DNA from: an uncultured archaeon
GTDB lineage: Archaea; Aenigmatarchaeota; Aenigmatarchaeia; GW2011-AR5
Assembly: GCA_964373255.1 (NCBI GenBank)
Contig: CAYJTG010000003.1
Span: 25,759 to 89,758, forward strand
Length of the DNA: 64,000 nt
Direction: 5' to 3'
The notes below the pieces were generated by a model. That model made no database searches. It was given only the letters and a program-made list of their open reading frames with translations, and was not told the origin of the DNA. Position 1 is the stretch's first letter, and each line of letters opens with the position of its first letter. Both the position numbers and the translations under genes were made by a program. Positions 1,513 to 62,480 of this stretch are shown here, piece by piece.

Positions 1513-1524
1513 TACGCCTCTCTA

Positions 1525-1721
1525 GGCACTGTCAACTTAACGGCTGTTGAAACAAACTGACGCACTAAAGTGCGTCTATCTGCTTTGGCAACAGCCTTTT
1601 CTGGGTGGTTAGCAATGGCTAACCACCCTTATAGCTAAACAAGAAAAGAATCAGGTATTATATTTCTTGTTTGCTATAATATCCAGATTATTTACTTGCT
1701 TCATAATAAGTTGACAGTGCC
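1525..1721. mobile_element. MITE-like non-autonomous element, copy 1 (about 197 bp). Flanked by 12-bp terminal inverted repeats GGCACTGTCAAC / GTTGACAGTGCC. Internal perfect hairpins.
   Basis: TIRs at 1525-1536 and 1710-1721. Positions 1537-1636 are about 95% identical to 56073-56168. Flanking direct repeat CTCTCTA (1518-1524 and 1724-1730). Internal hairpins GACGCAC-taaa-GTGCGTC and GGTGGTTAGC-aatg-GCTAACCACC. Confidence 0.55.
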
Positions 1722-1727
1722 GTCTCT

Positions 1728-2402
1728 CTATAATGAAAATTTTCCCACACCCTTTAGGTTGCTGCCTGTTATCTCAAACTCCACGCTCCGCCCCTCTGGC
1801 AGGCTTCTATGTTTCCTTAGTATAGCAATTCTATGGTTCTCCTTCTCCAGTTTTTTCAGCTCTATAAGCGTCTTGCTCCAGTACTTTGCAATTGTCCTGC
1901 TTGTCAGTTCTATCCTGTCGCCCGCGCTGTATACTTGGTTTGTAACAAGAATAGGGATGCCGTATTTGCGTGTTATTCTCGAAAGAATGGAGTACTGAGT
2001 TGCCAGCTGCTTGTTTACTTTCTGAAAGTTTGTGTCATCCAGTTCTAGCCGGTACAAAGCCACAAGAGAATCAACGATGATCACGCCAATTTTTTTCTCC
2101 TTCTCCACGACACTTTCAAACTCATGCATCTTGTCATTTTGTTCCTTCCAGTCGTGGACGTGTACCATAATTATGTTTTTGAGGTCCTTTTCTGTACCGC
2201 CAAGCTGCGTGAAGCGTTCGAGAGAAAATGATCCCTCGGTGTCCATGTAAATTACCTTCTTGTCCTTCAGGCAGCTCAACGACGTGATAAGTGCTATGTT
2301 TGTCTTACCAGACCCGGCTGGTCCATATACGTTTGTTATTGCGTCCAGCTCAAGCCCGCCGCCAAGAAGCTTATCCAATGGAGAGTTAGTGGGAAGTCTC
2401 AT
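1728..2402 (-). CDS. radB: DNA repair and recombination protein RadB (short archaeal RecA/RadA paralog).
   Basis: 224 aa. Walker A motif GPAGSGKT. The RadB-typical N-terminal 'LDKLLGGGLE' is present. There is no N-terminal HhH domain. Confidence 0.85.
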   Translation of the reverse strand: MRLPTNSPLDKLLGGGLELDAITNVYGPAGSGKTNIALITSLSCLKDKKVIYMDTEGSFSLERFTQLGGTEKDLKNIIMVHVHDWKEQNDKMHEFESVVEKEKKIGVIIVDSLVALYRLELDDTNFQKVNKQLATQYSILSRITRKYGIPILVTNQVYSAGDRIELTSRTIAKYWSKTLIELKKLEKENHRIAILRKHRSLPEGRSVEFEITGSNLKGVGKFSL

Positions 2403-47182: not shown

Positions 47183-48361
47183 TTAGACTGTCTCGTTGAA
47201 CCGTACCCTGAAAAGCTTGACCTCTCCGCCCCAGCTATTTACGAATTCGAAACTGTTTAGACCTACGCCGTTGAACAGAAACATCCTTGTAAACAGCGCA
47301 TTTTCCAGTTCTGGTGTCATAAAGAGGAGTGTTTGCCTTGAACCGTCTAACCATAAGGTCCCCTTGACCTCTGCCGCTGCGTCGTTATACAAATTGAATG
47401 CACCCTGACGGTCGAAGTACCATAATTTCTCTACGCGAAGAAGGTTGTTTTGCTGCTGCAGAAAAGGCCTGAGCGTGCCATTTGTCTCGTACAAAACAAA
47501 CGCGCTGTCTTGTGCAACCCTGTAATAGAATGCTATAGCGTTCTGGTCTAAAACAGGTCGCGCGGATTCTAGCGGTATTATGACGTAGTTGTGCCGCTGC
47601 CCATAGTTCGGCGCATTTGTCGGGTTCCACGTGGCGAAATAAGTCCACCACTGGCTTTTACCTATAAGATCCGAGGACGCGATATAGTAGAGTTCATCGC
47701 AGTCGGGCTTTTTATAATCTTTCAGAATTTTCACAGCTAACGTCTCGTTGCCTGTGAACAGTGTTGTTCCGATGTCCTGTATTCGTGCCCTTGTAACAGT
47801 TCCGTCTTTATAAAACAATACGCGGTTTATGCCGTGGTCTTGCTGCTCAATAACGATCCCGGTTTTTGTTTCGTCGGTTGGCAATGTTATAGTAGAACCC
47901 TGAGATGCTCCATCAAATACAATAGCACGCCGAGCTATGCCAGTTATAAAATGCCCTGGGTCCCAGTACGTTGCGATGACGGCGCATTCCTTTGTATTGT
48001 TCTTTATCCAGTTAAGTGCCTCCCACCAGTTGTCCGAAAGCACGGTACCAGAACACTCTGAGATTCTTAGACTATCGAGGTAATAGACATTCACAAAAAA
48101 TATGAATATTATAACCAAGAGAACGAATGAAAACAGTTCTCTGTTATTTATCCTTTTGCCAAAACGTGCACCTATGGCTATAAGAAATATAACAGCGGCA
48201 CCTATATAGAGCTGTAATGAATATCCGTCAATCCAGTCCTGGGACGTCATGGAACCACAGGTTGTTTGTACGCCACTAAAGAGAATCAACAGCACATATA
48301 TGATTACTATACTGATGATGCCTGCAGTAAATTTATTCGCGTTTATGTCCATGCTAATCAC
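47183..48361 (-). CDS. aglB: C-terminal part of AglB/STT3 oligosaccharyltransferase. Three TM helices followed by a periplasmic catalytic domain with a WWDYG-type motif.
   Basis: 'TYWDPGHFITGIARRAIVFDGAS' lies immediately after the third TM helix, as the WWDYG block does in STT3/PglB/AglB. The reading frame is offset from the upstream TM ORF. Confidence 0.55.
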   Translation of the reverse strand: MISMDINANKFTAGIISIVIIYVLLILFSGVQTTCGSMTSQDWIDGYSLQLYIGAAVIFLIAIGARFGKRINNRELFSFVLLVIIFIFFVNVYYLDSLRISECSGTVLSDNWWEALNWIKNNTKECAVIATYWDPGHFITGIARRAIVFDGASQGSTITLPTDETKTGIVIEQQDHGINRVLFYKDGTVTRARIQDIGTTLFTGNETLAVKILKDYKKPDCDELYYIASSDLIGKSQWWTYFATWNPTNAPNYGQRHNYVIIPLESARPVLDQNAIAFYYRVAQDSAFVLYETNGTLRPFLQQQNNLLRVEKLWYFDRQGAFNLYNDAAAEVKGTLWLDGSRQTLLFMTPELENALFTRMFLFNGVGLNSFEFVNSWGGEVKLFRVRFNETV

Positions 48362-49541: not shown

Positions 49542-49600
49542 ATTTGCATATGTTTGAGAAAAATGTTTAAATACCGATTATTTAGATAGGATTCCATATT

Positions 49601-49700
49601 CGTATGATGATGGTCGACGTGAGAGGCATTATCTGTCGATAATGCCTCTAGCTGACATATACGTCAACTGACGTATATGTCTACGTCGACCATCATACTT
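49601..49700. repeat. Structured palindromic element: an outer inverted repeat enclosing two perfect 12-bp hairpins with 4-nt loops.
   Basis: Outer arms CGTATGATGATGGTCGACGTG (49601-49621) and TACGTCGACCATCATACT (49683-49700). Hairpin 1 AGAGGCATTATC-tgtc-GATAATGCCTCT (49622-49649). Hairpin 2 GACATATACGTC-aact-GACGTATATGTC (49654-49681). Confidence 0.6.
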
Positions 49701-49716
49701 TAATGGAATTCCATCA

Positions 49717-53384: not shown

Positions 53385-53475
53385 AGTATCTCCGAAAGTG
53401 AGGTATACGCCTCTTGGCGTATACCTCGGTAGAGGATTACTGCCAACAGGCAGTAATCCAACTTTCGGAGATACT
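53385..53475. repeat. Structured palindromic element with the same architecture as 49601-49700: a perfect 15-bp outer stem enclosing two perfect 11-12-bp hairpins with 4-nt loops.
   Basis: Outer arms AGTATCTCCGAAAGT (53385-53399) and ACTTTCGGAGATACT (53461-53475). Hairpin A GAGGTATACGCC-tctt-GGCGTATACCTC (53400-53427). Hairpin B GGATTACTGCC-aaca-GGCAGTAATCC (53434-53459). Lies between the convergent secD and nac genes. Confidence 0.6.
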
Positions 53476-53826: not shown

Positions 53827-53996
53827 TGTACCACCAATTTGCCTTGGCATTGTCAACTTAAGGAGCACATAGTGGAATCGAAGATTCCACTTGTGCAGGT
53901 GAAGCTTTGCTTCACCATGCATTAGCCGTTGCTAATGCTCCAGAAAGGGGTGTTATCATTTGCCTTTAATTATTTTCATTCCCTAAATTTAAAGGT

Positions 53997-55757: not shown

Positions 55758-55955
55758 TTACCCGATATAATTTTCATCTTCTTCCGGTGTTGTGTCCTCG
55801 GGCATTTGGTTTTCTGGTGTGTTCTCGAGTTCCGGCTTCCTGCTCCTTCTTATACGCTCGACGGGGCCGAGGTATTTGCTTGTAACCTTCTTCCCGTTCC
55901 TAATAGAAGAATAATAATATTTTCTGCCGTTGATTACCTTTATGTGCCTGTTCAT
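55758..55955 (-). CDS. Small basic protein with an acidic C-terminal tail, 65 aa.
   Basis: 'KVINGRKYYYSSIRNGKKVTSKYLG' beta-hairpin-like basic motif followed by an acidic tail 'EDTTPEEDENYIG'. A MITE copy lies in its upstream region. Confidence 0.35.
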   Translation of the reverse strand: MNRHIKVINGRKYYYSSIRNGKKVTSKYLGPVERIRRSRKPELENTPENQMPEDTTPEEDENYIG

Positions 55956-56060
55956 GCGCTACCACTTTCCGTTCGACTGTAGACATGTCGTGGTCTGCAG
56001 TATTTAAAATTTTAGTTAGCGCAATTGCTAAATCGTAAAACATAAAATGCGTGTAAGATT

Positions 56061-56180
56061 GGCACTGTCACCTTAACGGCTGTTGAAACAAACTGACGCA
56101 CTAAAGTGCGTCTATCTGCTTTGACAACAGCCCTTTCTGGGTGGTTAGCAATGGCTAACCACCCTTAAGTTGACAGTGCC
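56061..56180. mobile_element. MITE-like element, copy 2 (about 120 bp). Same TIRs and core as 1525-1721 but without the ~77-bp internal segment.
   Basis: TIRs GGCACTGTCACC (56061-56072) and GTTGACAGTGCC (56169-56180). Flanking direct repeat TAAGATT / AAAGATT. Confidence 0.55.
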
Positions 56181-56199
56181 TGAAAGATTGAAGAAAATG

Positions 56200-58929
56200 T
56201 TATTCAAGTACGACCTTCTTTCCCAATGAGCCGTGGAAGCTGATGAGGACCTCTCCGCCGCAGTCGCACAGGCCTCTTATAGGCGCGCGCCTGTAGCTAC
56301 GGTTGCACGATTTGCACACAAATTCGTCCCATCCGCCCAGTTCGCCGGCTGTATTTTCGTTCGTATCTTCGGTATGGTTGTATGCGATGTCGATGTCCTT
56401 TTTTGTGGTGCGCCTTTTTCCCAGCAGCAGGTCTCCTAAGCTTACCTGCCGTCCGTTTCCAAGCAGCTCTGACTTTTCGACGCCTACCGCAGAGAGAATT
56501 CTTTCTATCGGCGGAAACAGCTGGCTCTCGATATAGTAGTTCGAGTCGATTGGTATGTTGTGCTTCTCGGCGTACGCCGGGTCTTCTGCGCGCTTTGAAA
56601 GCATCAGGTTGCCCTTGATAATAACAAATCCTATCCGATCGCCGATCTTTGGCGCGTCGTATGGGTTTCTTGCCGCAAGCTTCCTTGCAAGCTCTATGTG
56701 CGGAAGAATGCCTTTGTAGCTGTCCAGCCCCTGTGTGATGCCCTTTATGATTGTCAGTTTTTCCATCGGTATCTCGTTCTTGCGCAGCTTGTTCAATATG
56801 CCCTTTATGTAATCTATTGCCTTCTGTACGTCCCCTTCCTTGAGTATTATGTTCAGCGTTGTCATCATCGTCTCGCTCACGAGGGCACACCAATCTCTTC
56901 GCACGGTCTCGATGCCGCGCATGTCTATCTCATCGGTCCACCCGTTATCTGTCTGTTCGAACTTCCAGCCGGCGTATCTCTTTTTTGACAGGATAAGAAA
57001 CGTCCTGTATATTTTCTCAAACTGCAGTTCCAGCTGGCCTGGCAGGTTTTCTGTGACGAATTCTGATATCTTTTTGCCAGTCTCTTTGGCCTCATCCAGA
57101 TTGGTCGTTTTTGTCTTGATGAACATGGAATCCGTGTCAGCGTACAGAACCTCAAGCCCAAATTCTTTTTCCACCAGATTTTTTGTCTTTTCCAGATTTT
57201 CGCGCCCGAAGGCTGTTATAGAGTTCGCAACGTCGATCATGTAAAGCCTTGCCCTCACGTATCCCGTATACCCGTAGAACGAGTTTGACATGTCCTTCAA
57301 TGCGAGCTGCTTGGCGTTGAGGATTCTTCTTTCTTCGCCGGTTTTTGTTTTCATGAGTCCTTTAATTTTGCTTCGCGTCTCGATAAGCCTTTCCAAAACA
57401 GAGGGAAATATTCCCTTGTATAAGTCTTGGTCCACGAAAAGTGTGCCGATCGGCGATTCGTGGTGCTTTAGATCTGCTGTCTCTGATGTAAGGACGCTGT
57501 CTGGCGAAATGTTGTACGTCCTCATGATGGAAGGGTAGAGGCTCTTGAAATCCAGGACTATGACGCACGTATCTGCGTGCAGGCCTTTATTTGGCTCCAG
57601 CACGGTGGCGCCCTTGAGCTCTTTTTCTTCTCGTTCTTTTGTGCGCCTGTAGAGCTCCTGCCTGGAGTGCGCCGATGACATGACAACATCCCTTTTCTTA
57701 AACTCGTGAAGAAGCATTGTCTCTATCCTTTTTGTCTGCCCACCGAAGGTATCCTGAAGAAGGACGCCTGATATCTTTGAAAGCTCAAAGAATTTGTTGA
57801 GCATTCCCTTTTCTATGAGCAGTTTCATCGACAGGTCCGCGTCCTTTCTCGAGTACTCAATGAATTTTACCATATTCTGCCTTGTGCTGTTCCAGAGCTC
57901 TGCCATCTCCGAGTACGCAACCCCGTGTTTTTCCTCGTCGAGGAGCTTCTTTGCTACTGTTCTTAGGTCGTAGCGGTGCAGCTTTACCCACGGGTCTCTT
58001 TTCAGTATCTGGTAGGGGTCAACAACAACGCGCCCGGCTACAATAAACTCCTGGGTTATGCCATAAGTTTTGGAAAATGCGTCCTTGTCACACCTTCCTA
58101 TTGACAAAGGCAGCTTGTTTTGCTTTAGCCTTTCGATTATGTAAGGCAGGTCAAATGAATTTATGTTGTAGCCTGTTATTATGTCGGGATCATAAGAATC
58201 GATAATGCACAGCAACTCTTCGAGCATCTCCTTTTCGTTTCTAAAGCCCCTTACGCCGTCGCCAAAAAATGGTTTCGCCACAAGAACTGTGGATTTTGAG
58301 CCCCTGAAGTCCGGCCTGAAAGAGAGCGATACCATAACGATTGGGTCGTGCCTCGCGTCAACGGGCTTTTTGTCGTCCGAAGGTATGCATTCAATATCAA
58401 GGGCCATATAGCTGAGTGGCGCGTTCTCCAGGCTCTCAACGGGGTTTATTTTGTCTGCCTTGTAAGCCGCGACCTTTGACCTCACTGTTTTTTGTTCGTG
58501 TGTGCCTTCGACCTCTACCCACTGCATGCCGTTAAGTCCGTGGTCTACCATGAACCTGTACTTGAACATGATATCCGCTTCGTACACGTCCTGTGCGATA
58601 CCTGTGGATATGAGCTTCTCCCTGACGTGCGGCACGTCCTGCGGGTTGAACAGCATGACCTTGAGCATCTTTGTTTTGCTCTTCTGATAGCCGAGCGGGA
58701 TGAATTTTTCTGTTGGCTCGATGTCTTTTATTTCTTTCATGCCCTCGACGGCCGTAATGGCTTTTCCTGCCGTCATTTTTTCGCTCAGCCTCATGTAGAA
58801 GTAGGGAGTTACCTTGTCGTAAAGTACACAGCACGGTGCCCCGTTTTCTGTGCGCCCAAATATTCTTATAATGGGCTTGTTAGTATTGACAAAATAGTCT
58901 ATGTCTAATATCTGCATTTTGAAAAGCAT
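56200..58929 (-). CDS. polB: Family-B DNA polymerase (PolB) with an intact 3'-5' exonuclease domain and a C-terminal Cys4 zinc-ribbon extension.
   Basis: Exo I 'LDIECIP', Exo II 'YNINSFDLPYI', Exo III 'YSRKDADL'. Pol motif A 'DFKSLYPSI', motif B 'KDMSNSFYGY', motif C 'YADTDS'. C-terminal 'CKSCNRSYRRAPIRGLCDCGG'. Start at the Met of MLFKMQILDIDY, preceded by a GGGGGT Shine-Dalgarno-like sequence. The ORF track extends 5' to 59037. Confidence 0.9.
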   Translation of the reverse strand: MLFKMQILDIDYFVNTNKPIIRIFGRTENGAPCCVLYDKVTPYFYMRLSEKMTAGKAITAVEGMKEIKDIEPTEKFIPLGYQKSKTKMLKVMLFNPQDVPHVREKLISTGIAQDVYEADIMFKYRFMVDHGLNGMQWVEVEGTHEQKTVRSKVAAYKADKINPVESLENAPLSYMALDIECIPSDDKKPVDARHDPIVMVSLSFRPDFRGSKSTVLVAKPFFGDGVRGFRNEKEMLEELLCIIDSYDPDIITGYNINSFDLPYIIERLKQNKLPLSIGRCDKDAFSKTYGITQEFIVAGRVVVDPYQILKRDPWVKLHRYDLRTVAKKLLDEEKHGVAYSEMAELWNSTRQNMVKFIEYSRKDADLSMKLLIEKGMLNKFFELSKISGVLLQDTFGGQTKRIETMLLHEFKKRDVVMSSAHSRQELYRRTKEREEKELKGATVLEPNKGLHADTCVIVLDFKSLYPSIMRTYNISPDSVLTSETADLKHHESPIGTLFVDQDLYKGIFPSVLERLIETRSKIKGLMKTKTGEERRILNAKQLALKDMSNSFYGYTGYVRARLYMIDVANSITAFGRENLEKTKNLVEKEFGLEVLYADTDSMFIKTKTTNLDEAKETGKKISEFVTENLPGQLELQFEKIYRTFLILSKKRYAGWKFEQTDNGWTDEIDMRGIETVRRDWCALVSETMMTTLNIILKEGDVQKAIDYIKGILNKLRKNEIPMEKLTIIKGITQGLDSYKGILPHIELARKLAARNPYDAPKIGDRIGFVIIKGNLMLSKRAEDPAYAEKHNIPIDSNYYIESQLFPPIERILSAVGVEKSELLGNGRQVSLGDLLLGKRRTTKKDIDIAYNHTEDTNENTAGELGGWDEFVCKSCNRSYRRAPIRGLCDCGGEVLISFHGSLGKKVVLE

Positions 58930-61390: not shown

Positions 61391-61800
61391 TACATTATGA
61401 CAACCACGCCAAACAGTAATGATTCAACCACAATATAAGTAAAAACAACCCAAAGTAATTACACCATTATTTCTCTTGGAGGATATATAAACATATCTCT
61501 ACTGGAAATCAACGTTACTGAAAATATAGTTTCAAAACAAGACAGCTCCCCTATATTTCTTGTGGAACTTTTAAACAAACAATTACATAAATAACACTGT
61601 TATAAGAAAGAAAGGGTACGTTTTGTGTTTCTTTTCTTCAAAACTTGTTCTCACCACTAGTCGTTCATTAGAAATAATGGGGTCTGCTATACAGAAATGC
61701 GTATAAATTGCGTGATACCGTACTAATTCCCGATAAAACCAATAATAATCCAACAACACAATAACAGACCAAACCAATTTGTTCTTGCTTATTCCACAAT
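61391..61800. promoter_or_regulatory. Candidate replication origin (oriC): an AT-rich intergenic region next to orc1 carrying ORB-like TCTnnTGGA repeats.
   Basis: Direct repeats TCTCTTGGAGG (~61472), TCTACTGGAAA (~61498) and TCTTGTGGAAC (~61558). An inverted copy ATTCCACAAT (~61791) lies across an AT-rich stretch (61570-61790). The arrangement sits directly upstream of orc1. Confidence 0.4.
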
Positions 61801-62202
61801 TTCGAACTTGAAACCATAGTTGATTACCCCAGCGGCCCCGTCTTCGTATAACTTCCTGAAGACCATCCTTACAGGCTTTCCAATAACTATATTTTTATGA
61901 TCACCCACAATATGGCTGCTTACAACAGGCCCCTCGTCCAGTTGCACAAGGGCCATGGCATACGGGACATGTTTTTCAAAGCCCTCTGGCGCAGTATGGA
62001 TGACTGTGTAGGATAAAATCTTACCGCTGCCAGAAAACTGAAACTTCTCAATTTCCTCATGGCCGCAGCCCATGCAAACCGACCTTGGCGGAAAATGCGT
62101 CTGGTTGCACGATTTGCACCGTGTGCCTACCAATGCATATCTATGCTTCGCCAGTCTCCACGACATTGCAACAGATCCACTGTGTGACATGATTATCAAC
62201 AA
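61789..62202 (-). CDS. DUF35 Zn-ribbon / OB-fold protein, the scaffold partner of archaeal thiolase and HMG-CoA synthase.
   Basis: 'CKSCNQTHFPPRSVCMGCG' rubredoxin-like ribbon followed by an OB-fold region. 137 aa. Confidence 0.8.
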   Translation of the reverse strand: MLIIMSHSGSVAMSWRLAKHRYALVGTRCKSCNQTHFPPRSVCMGCGHEEIEKFQFSGSGKILSYTVIHTAPEGFEKHVPYAMALVQLDEGPVVSSHIVGDHKNIVIGKPVRMVFRKLYEDGAAGVINYGFKFEIVE

Positions 62203-62477
62203 AACTTTGGAGAACGCCCAGCATAGATTTCCGTTTCATTTATCGGGTACATTAAAAGGTTTTTTCTAATATTAGGATTTTTGCTAGGCACACACGCATA
62301 AATTACACCTTCTACAAATTTGTGGTAAAAATAGCGTATTTTTGAGGTATGTCCGCCCCACTTTACAGTTACAATACTATCAGACTCTAAGTGCCTACCA
62401 TTACTATCTGGCGAACCCCAATGTCCAAAGGGTGGCCATCCATTAAATCTGTATTTCCATGTATAATTACCAATCAT
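62196..62477 (-). CDS. Hypothetical Trp-rich small protein, 93 aa, lying between the thiolase and DUF35 genes.
   Basis: The ORF fills the whole gap. It has no recognised motifs. Coding status is uncertain. Confidence 0.25.
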   Translation of the reverse strand: MIGNYTWKYRFNGWPPFGHWGSPDSNGRHLESDSIVTVKWGGHTSKIRYFYHKFVEGVIYACVPSKNPNIRKNLLMYPINETEIYAGRSPKFC

Positions 62478-62480
62478 ATC

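Follow-up and report, generated by a model that had tools for sequence, protein, structure and literature searches.

A probable miniature transposable element with IS6-type ends and a hairpin-module interior in a DPANN archaeal genome

Introduction

[quoted passage not shown] Here we analyse a 120-nt element at positions 56061-56180 of a 64-kb stretch of DNA from an uncultured DPANN archaeon (contig CAYJTG010000003.1; the whole stretch is referred to below as the window). The element, termed copy 2 in relation to a longer copy in the same window, is most probably a non-autonomous DNA transposon, i.e., a MITE with ends of the IS6/IS26 type.

In a census of 8220 archaeal genomes, MITEs were densest in those of DPANN (PMC11602168). 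The hallmarks of IS6-family insertion sequences (ISs) are GG tips, a G at position 7, cTGTt, terminal inverted repeats (TIRs) of 15-20 bp, and an 8-bp target-site duplication; one archaeal member, ISPfu5, is listed with a 9-bp duplication (PMC7986276, PMC6807381). ISfinder lists MITEBth2 and MITEHarch3, of 227 and 336 bp, as the only IS6/IS26 MITEs (PMC7986276, PMC6807381).

Like these two MITEs, copy 2 is short and non-coding, has IS6-type TIRs and a target-site duplication, and would depend on a transposase supplied in trans. It differs from them in its smaller size (120 nt), its 9-bp rather than 8-bp duplication, its DPANN host, TIRs whose identical counterpart was found only on bacterial IS6 elements, and an interior that is a mosaic of hairpin modules and not IS-derived. 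With the bacterial mosaic repeats, copy 2 and its relatives share a length of ~100-200 nt, an intergenic location just downstream of genes, long imperfect palindromes, strong transcribed folds, and a modular build with size variants that differ by an internal block. There is no sequence relation to those repeats, however, and copy 2 is set apart from them by the ends of a defined IS family, a clean 9-bp duplication, perfect Watson-Crick stems, and an archaeal host. The described archaeal MITEs (those of Sulfolobus and of the census) are likewise non-autonomous TIR elements in intergenic DNA; the family of copy 2, in contrast, was not found in a species-representative genome collection.

Results and Discussion

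Ends, fold, and position of the element

Copy 2 is bounded by 16-nt TIRs that match at 15 of 16 positions, and both ends carry the GG tips, the G at position 7, and the CTGT characteristic of IS6 elements (coordinates of this and other features are collected in Table 1). The TIR pattern occurs five times in the 64-kb window against 0.82 expected, a count reached in 0 of 100 shuffles. On both strands the TIRs are predicted to form the closing stem of a three-way junction with two hairpins, A and B; the folding energy is -64.5 kcal/mol for the + strand (z -10.05 versus shuffles) and -71.7 kcal/mol for the - strand (z -12.4), and in a scan by segments of 120 nt copy 2 ranked third among the folding outliers of the whole window. 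The upper part of hairpin B, GACGCAC-TAAA-GTGCGTC (56095-56112), is enclosed by a lower stem formed by GGCTGTTG and CAACAGCC. By inspection, all six reading frames are closed within the element by TTAA in both TIRs and by internal stops, and the longest open stretch is 23 codons, which leaves no coding capacity.

The element lies 19 nt from the stop codon of polB (56200-02, - strand) and about 40 nt upstream of a conserved TATA-like box that precedes a gene for a 65-aa protein. Read along the - strand, the order is thus polB stop, a T-rich tract (CATTTTCTTCAATCTTTCA), copy 2, a spacer of about 40 nt, the TATA-like box, and the 65-aa gene. The original prediction had described an element of 120 bp that shares the TIRs of copy 1 apart from one mismatch on the left (the C at 56071), lacks an internal block of ~77 bp present in copy 1, folds as a stem with two hairpins, and sits between the 3' end of polB and the promoter of the 65-aa gene; sequence, alignment (the block corresponds to 1632-1708), minimum free energy (MFE) fold, and distances bear out each of these points.

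In the 65-aa protein itself (gene at 55758-55955, - strand) the N-terminal half is basic and the tail acidic. It matches no Pfam family, and the relative L022 discussed below has an equally long gene at this position.

Searches for known RNAs were negative. Rfam at the gathering threshold gave 0 matches in the whole window; relaxing the threshold to E<=10 for copy 2 gave TarB as the best match, with 17 bits where the cutoff is 80; and an ARAGORN search found no tRNA. Several structured-RNA readings of copy 2 were rejected on hand inspection: a K-turn or box C/D motif (no GA/AG pairs), an H/ACA pocket (no ACA 3' of the lower stem), a hammerhead core (no CUGAUGA/GAAA junctions), and a bulge-helix-bulge (BHB) motif (no 3-nt bulges). 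A CRISPR repeat did not fit either. On the - strand hairpin B can be extended by G-U pairs; a strand-specific function for this extension was considered and dropped, as the extension is not conserved in a second element that carries the same hairpin tip (L018, below).

Flanking duplications and absence from a syntenic relative

A 9-mer abuts each end of copy 2, and the two (TGTAAGATT and TGAAAGATT) agree at 8 of 9 positions. The flanking repeat had previously been given as TAAGATT / AAAGATT, which is offset by 2 nt; these 7-mers form the inner part of the 9-mer and should be replaced by it. Copy 1 and a third, rearranged family member are flanked in the same way (Table 1). The chance of a flanking match of at least 8/9 is ~1e-4 per element, and the joint chance for all three is ~4e-14. 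An 8-bp reading of the duplications would require that an extra, non-conserved right-end base match in all three elements (p about 1/64). The three duplications are unrelated in sequence, a pattern that, together with the TIRs, does not fit REP/RAYT or IS200/IS605 elements.

PolB (905 aa; start at 58917) has its best relatives, at 50-70% identity, in metagenome-assembled genomes of Candidatus Aenigmarchaeota, so that the host belongs to the DPANN archaea and has no close relative among sequenced genomes. L022/L023 (PolB 70% identical), the nearest relative for which a long contig exists, has the same gene order as the window: cdc6, PolD-small-like, polB, 65 aa, 58 aa, TctA, NAC. The spacer between polB and the 65-aa gene is 111 nt in this relative versus 244 nt in the window, and the difference equals copy 2 plus one 9-mer to within 4 nt. 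On both sides of the gap the two sequences align, in the polB T-tract on one side and in the box CTAACTAAAwTTTTAAATAC on the other. Tract and box are therefore native, neither having been supplied by copy 2. The third element is likewise missing from L022, where the TctA/NAC spacer is about 41 nt versus about 170 nt in the window. The proposal that copy 2 is a MITE-like mobile element thus gains support from its TIRs, its duplication, the presence of two copies and a variant, its absence from a syntenic relative, and, as detailed next, the identity of its TIR with IS6 ends.

IS6-type ends and the search for a transposase

IS6-family elements in three bacterial contigs (L002, L009, L007) have exactly the terminal sequence GGCACTGTCAACTTAA(CGG) at their ends. 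The left end GGCACTGTCAACTTAACGG, exact in copy 1 and with a C at position 11 in copy 2, equals the ends of the L002 element over 17-19 nt. That element is an 805-bp IS with the TIR at both ends and an open reading frame (ORF) that has one internal stop and matches DDE_Tnp_IS240 (Pfam, 1.2e-21); the same contig carries a second, partial copy of it. In L009 and L007, the spacing and orientation of IS6 transposase genes relative to the TIR match are as expected. When a collection with a single genome for each prokaryotic species was scanned with GGCACTGTCAMCTTAASGG, 16 loci matched, every one of them bacterial; several proved to be IS6 ends, so that the matches are not all due to chance, and no archaeal copy was found in this collection. 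Scans of viral contigs gave one chance match to the TIR (L020) and one to the hairpin (L021), and blastn against plasmids gave no relevant match.

Six of the contigs returned by the TIR scan are from Paraburkholderia (L003, L008, L010, L015, L016, L017). In L003, L008, L015, and L016 the scan match is accompanied, at a distance of about 800-950 bp, by a second IS6-type TIR; in L008 and L015 the TIR pair is inverted and brackets a universal-stress-protein gene, which in L008 is adjoined by an IS3/IS481-like rve transposase.

The 9-bp duplication in all three elements, against the normal 8 bp of IS6, raises the question of whether some other transposase mobilised the element and the likeness to IS6 ends is mere resemblance. 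Both IS1, with ends GGnnnTG, and the IS903 group of IS5, with ends that start GGC, make 9-bp duplications and share the GG...TG pattern. No IS1 or IS5 element with the ends of copy 2 was seen, however, whereas elements that demonstrably encode DDE_Tnp_IS240 transposases have the same first 16-19 nt at their ends, and the 9 bp recorded for ISPfu5 provides a precedent within archaeal IS6; mobilisation by another 9-bp-duplicating family accordingly seems very unlikely.

Copies, variants, and what weighs against an IS6-type MITE

Copy 1 and copy 2 share 107 nt (1525-1631 in copy 1) at 97% identity, with three substitutions. The length difference is the 77-nt block of copy 1 (1632-1708), which copy 2 lacks and which contains a hairpin module, M3 (1633-1675), that recurs in a palindromic insertion of another contig (L040, below). 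The TIRs of copy 1 match at 15 of 15 positions, its right TIR deviating at position 16; the right TIR of copy 2 has the canonical form (A at position 16, then GG) seen in the third element and in the IS6 elements. Copy 2 had been called a deletion derivative of copy 1, a polarity that these comparisons do not establish. Because the extra block is a hairpin module that recurs in L040, gain of the module by copy 1 would be at least as likely as its loss from copy 2, and the canonical right TIR of the 120-nt form would mildly favour gain.

The third element was aligned with the reverse strand of copy 2. Common to the two are the TIR (17/18), the hairpin A core TTAGCC-TT-GCTAA, and a linker (CCAGAAAGGG) with TGTTrTCA after it. 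Three pairs in a row in the outer part of the hairpin A stem differ between the two elements, each with compensating changes on both sides. Hairpin B, and with it module M1, is missing from the third element.

Several observations weigh against identification as an IS6-type MITE. The duplication is 9 bp where 8 bp is typical of IS6. No transposase is encoded in the 64-kb window by a Pfam scan of all ORFs of at least 150 aa, the TIR-sharing IS6 elements are all bacterial, and no IS6 element of Aenigmarchaeota was seen. Direct observation extends to two full copies and one variant, scans of genome collections and of metagenomes having yielded no further full copies; the source genome is represented in the searched collections by short Logan contigs. 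The third element has no convincing right TIR despite its perfect 9-bp flanking repeat. Finally, the element-free relative is distant (PolB 70%), so that it shows absence rather than a precise empty site. We nevertheless consider an IS6-type MITE the probable identity of copy 2.

As regards the transposase, tblastn of the window with an IS6 transposase was also negative; among the ORFs of at least 150 aa, that at 47183-48361 has no Pfam match, and all others belong to housekeeping or glycosylation families. As regards copy number, the Logan contigs of the organism, which derive from three different sequencing runs, without exception break off within an element. The start of L001 precedes by exactly 30 nt (k-1) the base in which copy 2 differs from copy 1, and its end is at position 68 of the third element; L041 and L042, each from one of the other two runs, stop 15 nt inside the additional block of copy 1. 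The sub-sequences at these contig ends have no second copy in the window. Since the contigs break at sub-sequences that are single-copy in the window, the implied graph branches are likely, on this indirect evidence, to reflect more copies or variants elsewhere in the genome. In practice, each copy fragments short-read assemblies of this organism, which calls for caution.

Is the element a regulatory module?

A role as terminator or promoter module had also been suggested for copy 2, and co-option as a regulatory module for polB or the 65-aa gene (terminator, insulator, 3'-end stabiliser, or promoter) has some points in its favour. The element begins 19 nt past the polB stop, and its fold is the more stable in the sense (-) strand, at -71.7 kcal/mol; moreover, four of the five window elements of the class described below, as well as the L018 element, lie 0-20 nt past stop codons. 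The element does not look like an intrinsic terminator, however: past the closing stem the - strand reads AATCTTACACGC, with no T-run. Archaeal termination is based on oligo-T rather than on hairpins, and the TTTTCTT tract that precedes copy 2 on the - strand is kept, like the promoter box, in the relative that has no element. Placement beside stop codons is equally explained if these are the sole dispensable bases in a compact genome. The suggested terminator or promoter role thus found no support, and co-option in any of its forms appears unlikely.

A class of palindromic insertions with shared hairpin modules

The top five folding outliers of the window (53385-53475, 49590-49713, copy 2, the third element, and copy 1) are all short intergenic palindromes in which a closing stem encloses two or three long hairpins. 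The strongest of them, 53385-53475 (z -8.6), fills a convergent gap, lying 3 nt from the stop of secD and 10 nt from that of NAC; its flanking repeat is weak (ATAGAA/GTAGAA). The palindrome at 49590-49713, whose end is separated by 3 nt from the stop codon of a gene similar to geranylgeranyl reductases, has a sister in L022. The 90-nt cores of these two (L022 19063-19152 and the reverse strand of window 49607-49696) are homologous and occupy non-syntenic loci. Of the 38 stem pairs, 9 are changed on both sides and 0 on one side only, and all 76 stem cells are Watson-Crick, without G-U. Both strands therefore fold alike, as expected for DNA palindromes; template-switch correction of quasi-palindromes could give paired changes of this kind without selection at the RNA level. 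The ends of the L022 member (GGCTCTGTAGAAA / AGCTCTGTAGAAAA) are IS6-like, and they are flanked by a perfect repeat of 8 bp (ATTTGATT); its TIR, GGCTCTGTAGAAA, does not occur in the window, and a viral-contig scan with it gave no match.

Individual hairpins recur beyond the family. A metagenome scan with a 23-mer of hairpin B as the query matched only L018 and L019, both assigned to Aenigmarchaeota by their best named protein matches. The match in L018 is an element whose hairpin tip is an identical 25-nt module and whose lower stem, GCATTACCG/CGGTAATGC, is wholly different. It lies between the gene for a large membrane-anchored protein and minD. The locus is identical in ten contigs from several samples, so that no covariation can be read from it, and the element is absent from the relatives L039 and L040 (MinD 77% identical), in which the upstream gene and minD overlap or abut. 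L040 carries a composite palindrome of its own downstream of minD. In this composite the hairpin GGTGAAGC-TTTG-CTTCACC of the third element (53898-53916) recurs, as does the M3 hairpin of copy 1 with one compensated pair; the equivalent spacer in L024 and L039 is 33-35 nt and has no composite. Neither the L018 nor the L040 insertion shows a clear duplication. One 23-25-nt module is identical across lineages whose proteins are 45-70% identical; this may reflect either selection for the module or its recent lateral spread, accompanied by recombination.

This modular exchange invites the view that copy 2 is a selfish palindrome of hairpin modules spread in a structure-dependent way, by an HUH/Y1 transposase or by template-switch copying, with the IS6 ends as no more than an interchangeable closing stem. 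The same architecture with unrelated closing stems at 49590-49713, at 53385-53475, and in L018 and L040, the modules common to elements with different frames, and the insertions without clear duplication in L018 and L040 all fit such a view. It is highly improbable for copy 2, in that copy 2 and the L022 member combine IS6-like ends with clean duplications of 8-9 bp, which HUH transposition does not yield, and no Y1/HUH transposase was seen in the window.

Covariation had been named beforehand as a sign of a conserved non-coding RNA (ncRNA) rather than a mobile element. The stems do co-vary, and to that extent the sign is present; mobility is not refuted by it, as the sites are non-syntenic and have duplications. 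Stems that co-vary in elements that move mean that compensatory change does not discriminate between the two readings. An immobile structured ncRNA gene, or a family of paralogous small RNAs in which the inverted ends form the closing helix of the RNA, would agree with the very strong folding, with compensatory changes that preserve hairpins in related elements, and with one hairpin that is 100% conserved in three Aenigmarchaeota contigs. It would leave the 9-bp flanking duplications unexplained, along with the ends identical to IS6 ends, the copies in unrelated contexts, and the lack of the element at the syntenic locus. Stems made of Watson-Crick pairs only, so that both strands fold alike, are the signature of a DNA palindrome and not of a strand-specific RNA; the element has no promoter of its own and no Rfam match, and its class relatives occupy 3-10-nt spacers between convergent genes. 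We regard an ncRNA as extremely improbable.

These compact genomes, then, carry hyper-stable palindromic insertions of ~90-200 nt beside stop codons, with interchangeable, co-varying hairpin modules.

Proposed mode of mobility and maintenance

If copy 2 is an IS6-type MITE, a DDE transposase of the IS6 family, encoded now or at one time at another place in the genome, would bind the two GGCACTGTCAACTTAA ends and, acting in trans, would move the element, with staggered target cuts 9 bp apart. Because IS6 enzymes act via cointegrates, the intermediates would need to be resolved by host recombination. The gene-free interior would be a mosaic of perfect Watson-Crick hairpin modules able to fold on either strand, the modules being exchanged among different palindromic insertions of Aenigmarchaeota and the stems kept by paired changes. 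Insertions would survive only in the few dispensable bases beside stop codons. Stem upkeep might have either of two causes: the compact structure may make insertions beside stops harmless or useful to the transcript, or template switching may correct quasi-palindromes.

As a mobile element copy 2 is ordinary. It does suggest that an IS6-type transposition system was recently active in a small DPANN genome, and its TIRs, identical to bacterial IS6 ends, hint that mobile DNA passes between the domains. The part worth following is the sharing of modules and their link to a tRNA intron: module context offers a testable lead on the tolerance of such elements and on their possible role as seeds of archaeal introns.

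A shared module in a tRNA-Glu intron

The second match to the hairpin B 23-mer lies in a tRNA-Glu(CUC) gene of L019, in an intron of about 93 nt at position 59/60, in the T-loop. The intron flanks are predicted to pair as GCGGG-UUCA-[AAU]-CCAAUC...GAUUGG-UGAA-[AUU]-CCCGC, which is the canonical helix-bulge-helix-bulge-helix (hBHBh') motif. Its interior carries TGACGCACTAAAGTGCGTCTATCgGCTTTGA and shares 23-31 nt, corresponding to module M1, with copy 2. An IS6-like GGTCATGTCAA precedes the shared module, and the closing stem of the intron resembles those of the palindromic elements. The 9-mers at the intron borders, UUCAAAUCC and UGAAAUUCC, match at 6 of 9 positions exactly where a 9-bp duplication would lie, and the 4-bp helix at the centre of the splice motif owes its existence to two changes in this border repeat. 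A comparator tRNA-Glu was sought in relatives of L019, of which L037, L043, and L044 are not syntenic.

Fujishima et al. (2010) are said to have put forward an 'intron transposition' idea for archaeal BHB tRNA introns at non-canonical positions. The L019 intron is like those introns in its canonical hBHBh' form at 59/60 and carries M1 besides; copy 2 differs in having no BHB motif and lying in no tRNA, and the link is one intron. That hairpin modules are the evolving units of a mobile palindrome class, and that an insertion of this class into the T-loop gave rise to the L019 intron, is a speculative idea that we consider quite unlikely; if true, it would make MITE-like insertions a source of non-canonical archaeal tRNA introns. 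Module sharing with a tRNA intron is not described in the two MITE studies consulted (PMC11602168, PMC10969869).

Table 1. Coordinates of copy 2, its relatives, and associated features (positions refer to the window unless a contig is named; MFE, minimum free energy fold).
Feature	Position	Strand	Description
Copy 2 (element under study, probable MITE)	56061..56180	.	120 nt; repeat search, pairwise alignment, fold
Copy 2, left TIR	56061..56076	+	GGCACTGTCACCTTAA; single mismatch is C at 56071; IS6-type G1, G2, G7, CTGT
Copy 2, right TIR	56165..56180	-	TTAAGTTGACAGTGCC; reverse complement is GGCACTGTCAACTTAA then GG
Copy 2, hairpin B	56078..56132	.	lower stem GGCTGTTG (56078-85) / CAACAGCC (56125-32), internal loop, upper hairpin; MFE
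Copy 2, module M1	56094..56118	+	TGACGCAC-TAAA-GTGCGTCTATCTG; common to L018 element and L019 tRNA-Glu intron; metagenome scan, BLAST
Copy 2, hairpin A (module M4)	56139..56164	.	GGGTGGTTAGC-AATG-GCTAACCACCC; MFE; homologous to 53919-53938 of third element
Copy 2, left putative target-site duplication	56052..56060	.	TGTAAGATT; abuts end; 8/9 versus right copy
Copy 2, right putative target-site duplication	56181..56189	.	TGAAAGATT; abuts end; 8/9 versus left copy
Copy 1 (probable MITE)	1525..1721	.	197 nt; direct-repeat search and pairwise alignment
Copy 1, left putative target-site duplication	1516..1524	.	GCCTCTCTA; 8/9 versus right copy
Copy 1, right putative target-site duplication	1722..1730	.	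GTCTCTCTA; includes radB stop codon (1728-1730, - strand)
Third, rearranged family member	53846..53957	+	112 nt; left TIR GGCATTGTCAACTTAAGG, two other hairpins, hairpin-A homologue, linker CCAGAAAGGG
Third element, left direct repeat	53837..53845	.	ATTTGCCTT; perfect 9/9
Third element, right direct repeat	53958..53966	.	ATTTGCCTT; perfect 9/9
Palindromic element	53385-53475		91 nt, perfect; 15-bp closing stem (AGTATCTCCGAAAGT), 12-bp and 11-bp hairpins
Sister-family member	L022 19034-19175		three-way-junction palindrome
L018 element	L018 4719-4838 (= L024 2880-2999)		120 nt; closing stem and two hairpins, unrelated ends (GCAGCATTTGCGTGA)
L040 composite palindrome	L040 966-1166		about 190 nt; 11-bp closing stem, four hairpins, z -8.95; downstream of minD
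tRNA-Glu(CUC) gene with T-loop intron	L019 1796-1954; also L034 11276-11434	-	strand and score for L019; Rfam tRNA 27 bits, model positions 7-64

Genomic surroundings

Genes neighbouring the element in the window encode Orc1/Cdc6, a PolD-small-subunit-like phosphoesterase, a family B DNA polymerase, NAC, TctA, SecDF, and RadB. The spacer of ~1.1 kb upstream of orc1/cdc6 (61391-62480) contains inverted repeats (61461-83/61661-83 and 62121-33/62281-93) and may, with origin-recognition boxes, constitute the replication origin. From about 16100 to 49600 the G+C content is low (down to 31%), and this large tract holds ~30 glycosyltransferase, sugar-nucleotide, methyltransferase, flippase, and STT3 genes, whose counterparts in L022 are differently arranged around the polB locus. 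A perfect 13-bp hairpin, CTACAAATGGATT-aa-AATCCATTTGTAG, occupies 2415-2442, in the spacer that separates radB from a divergently oriented RNase-H-like gene.

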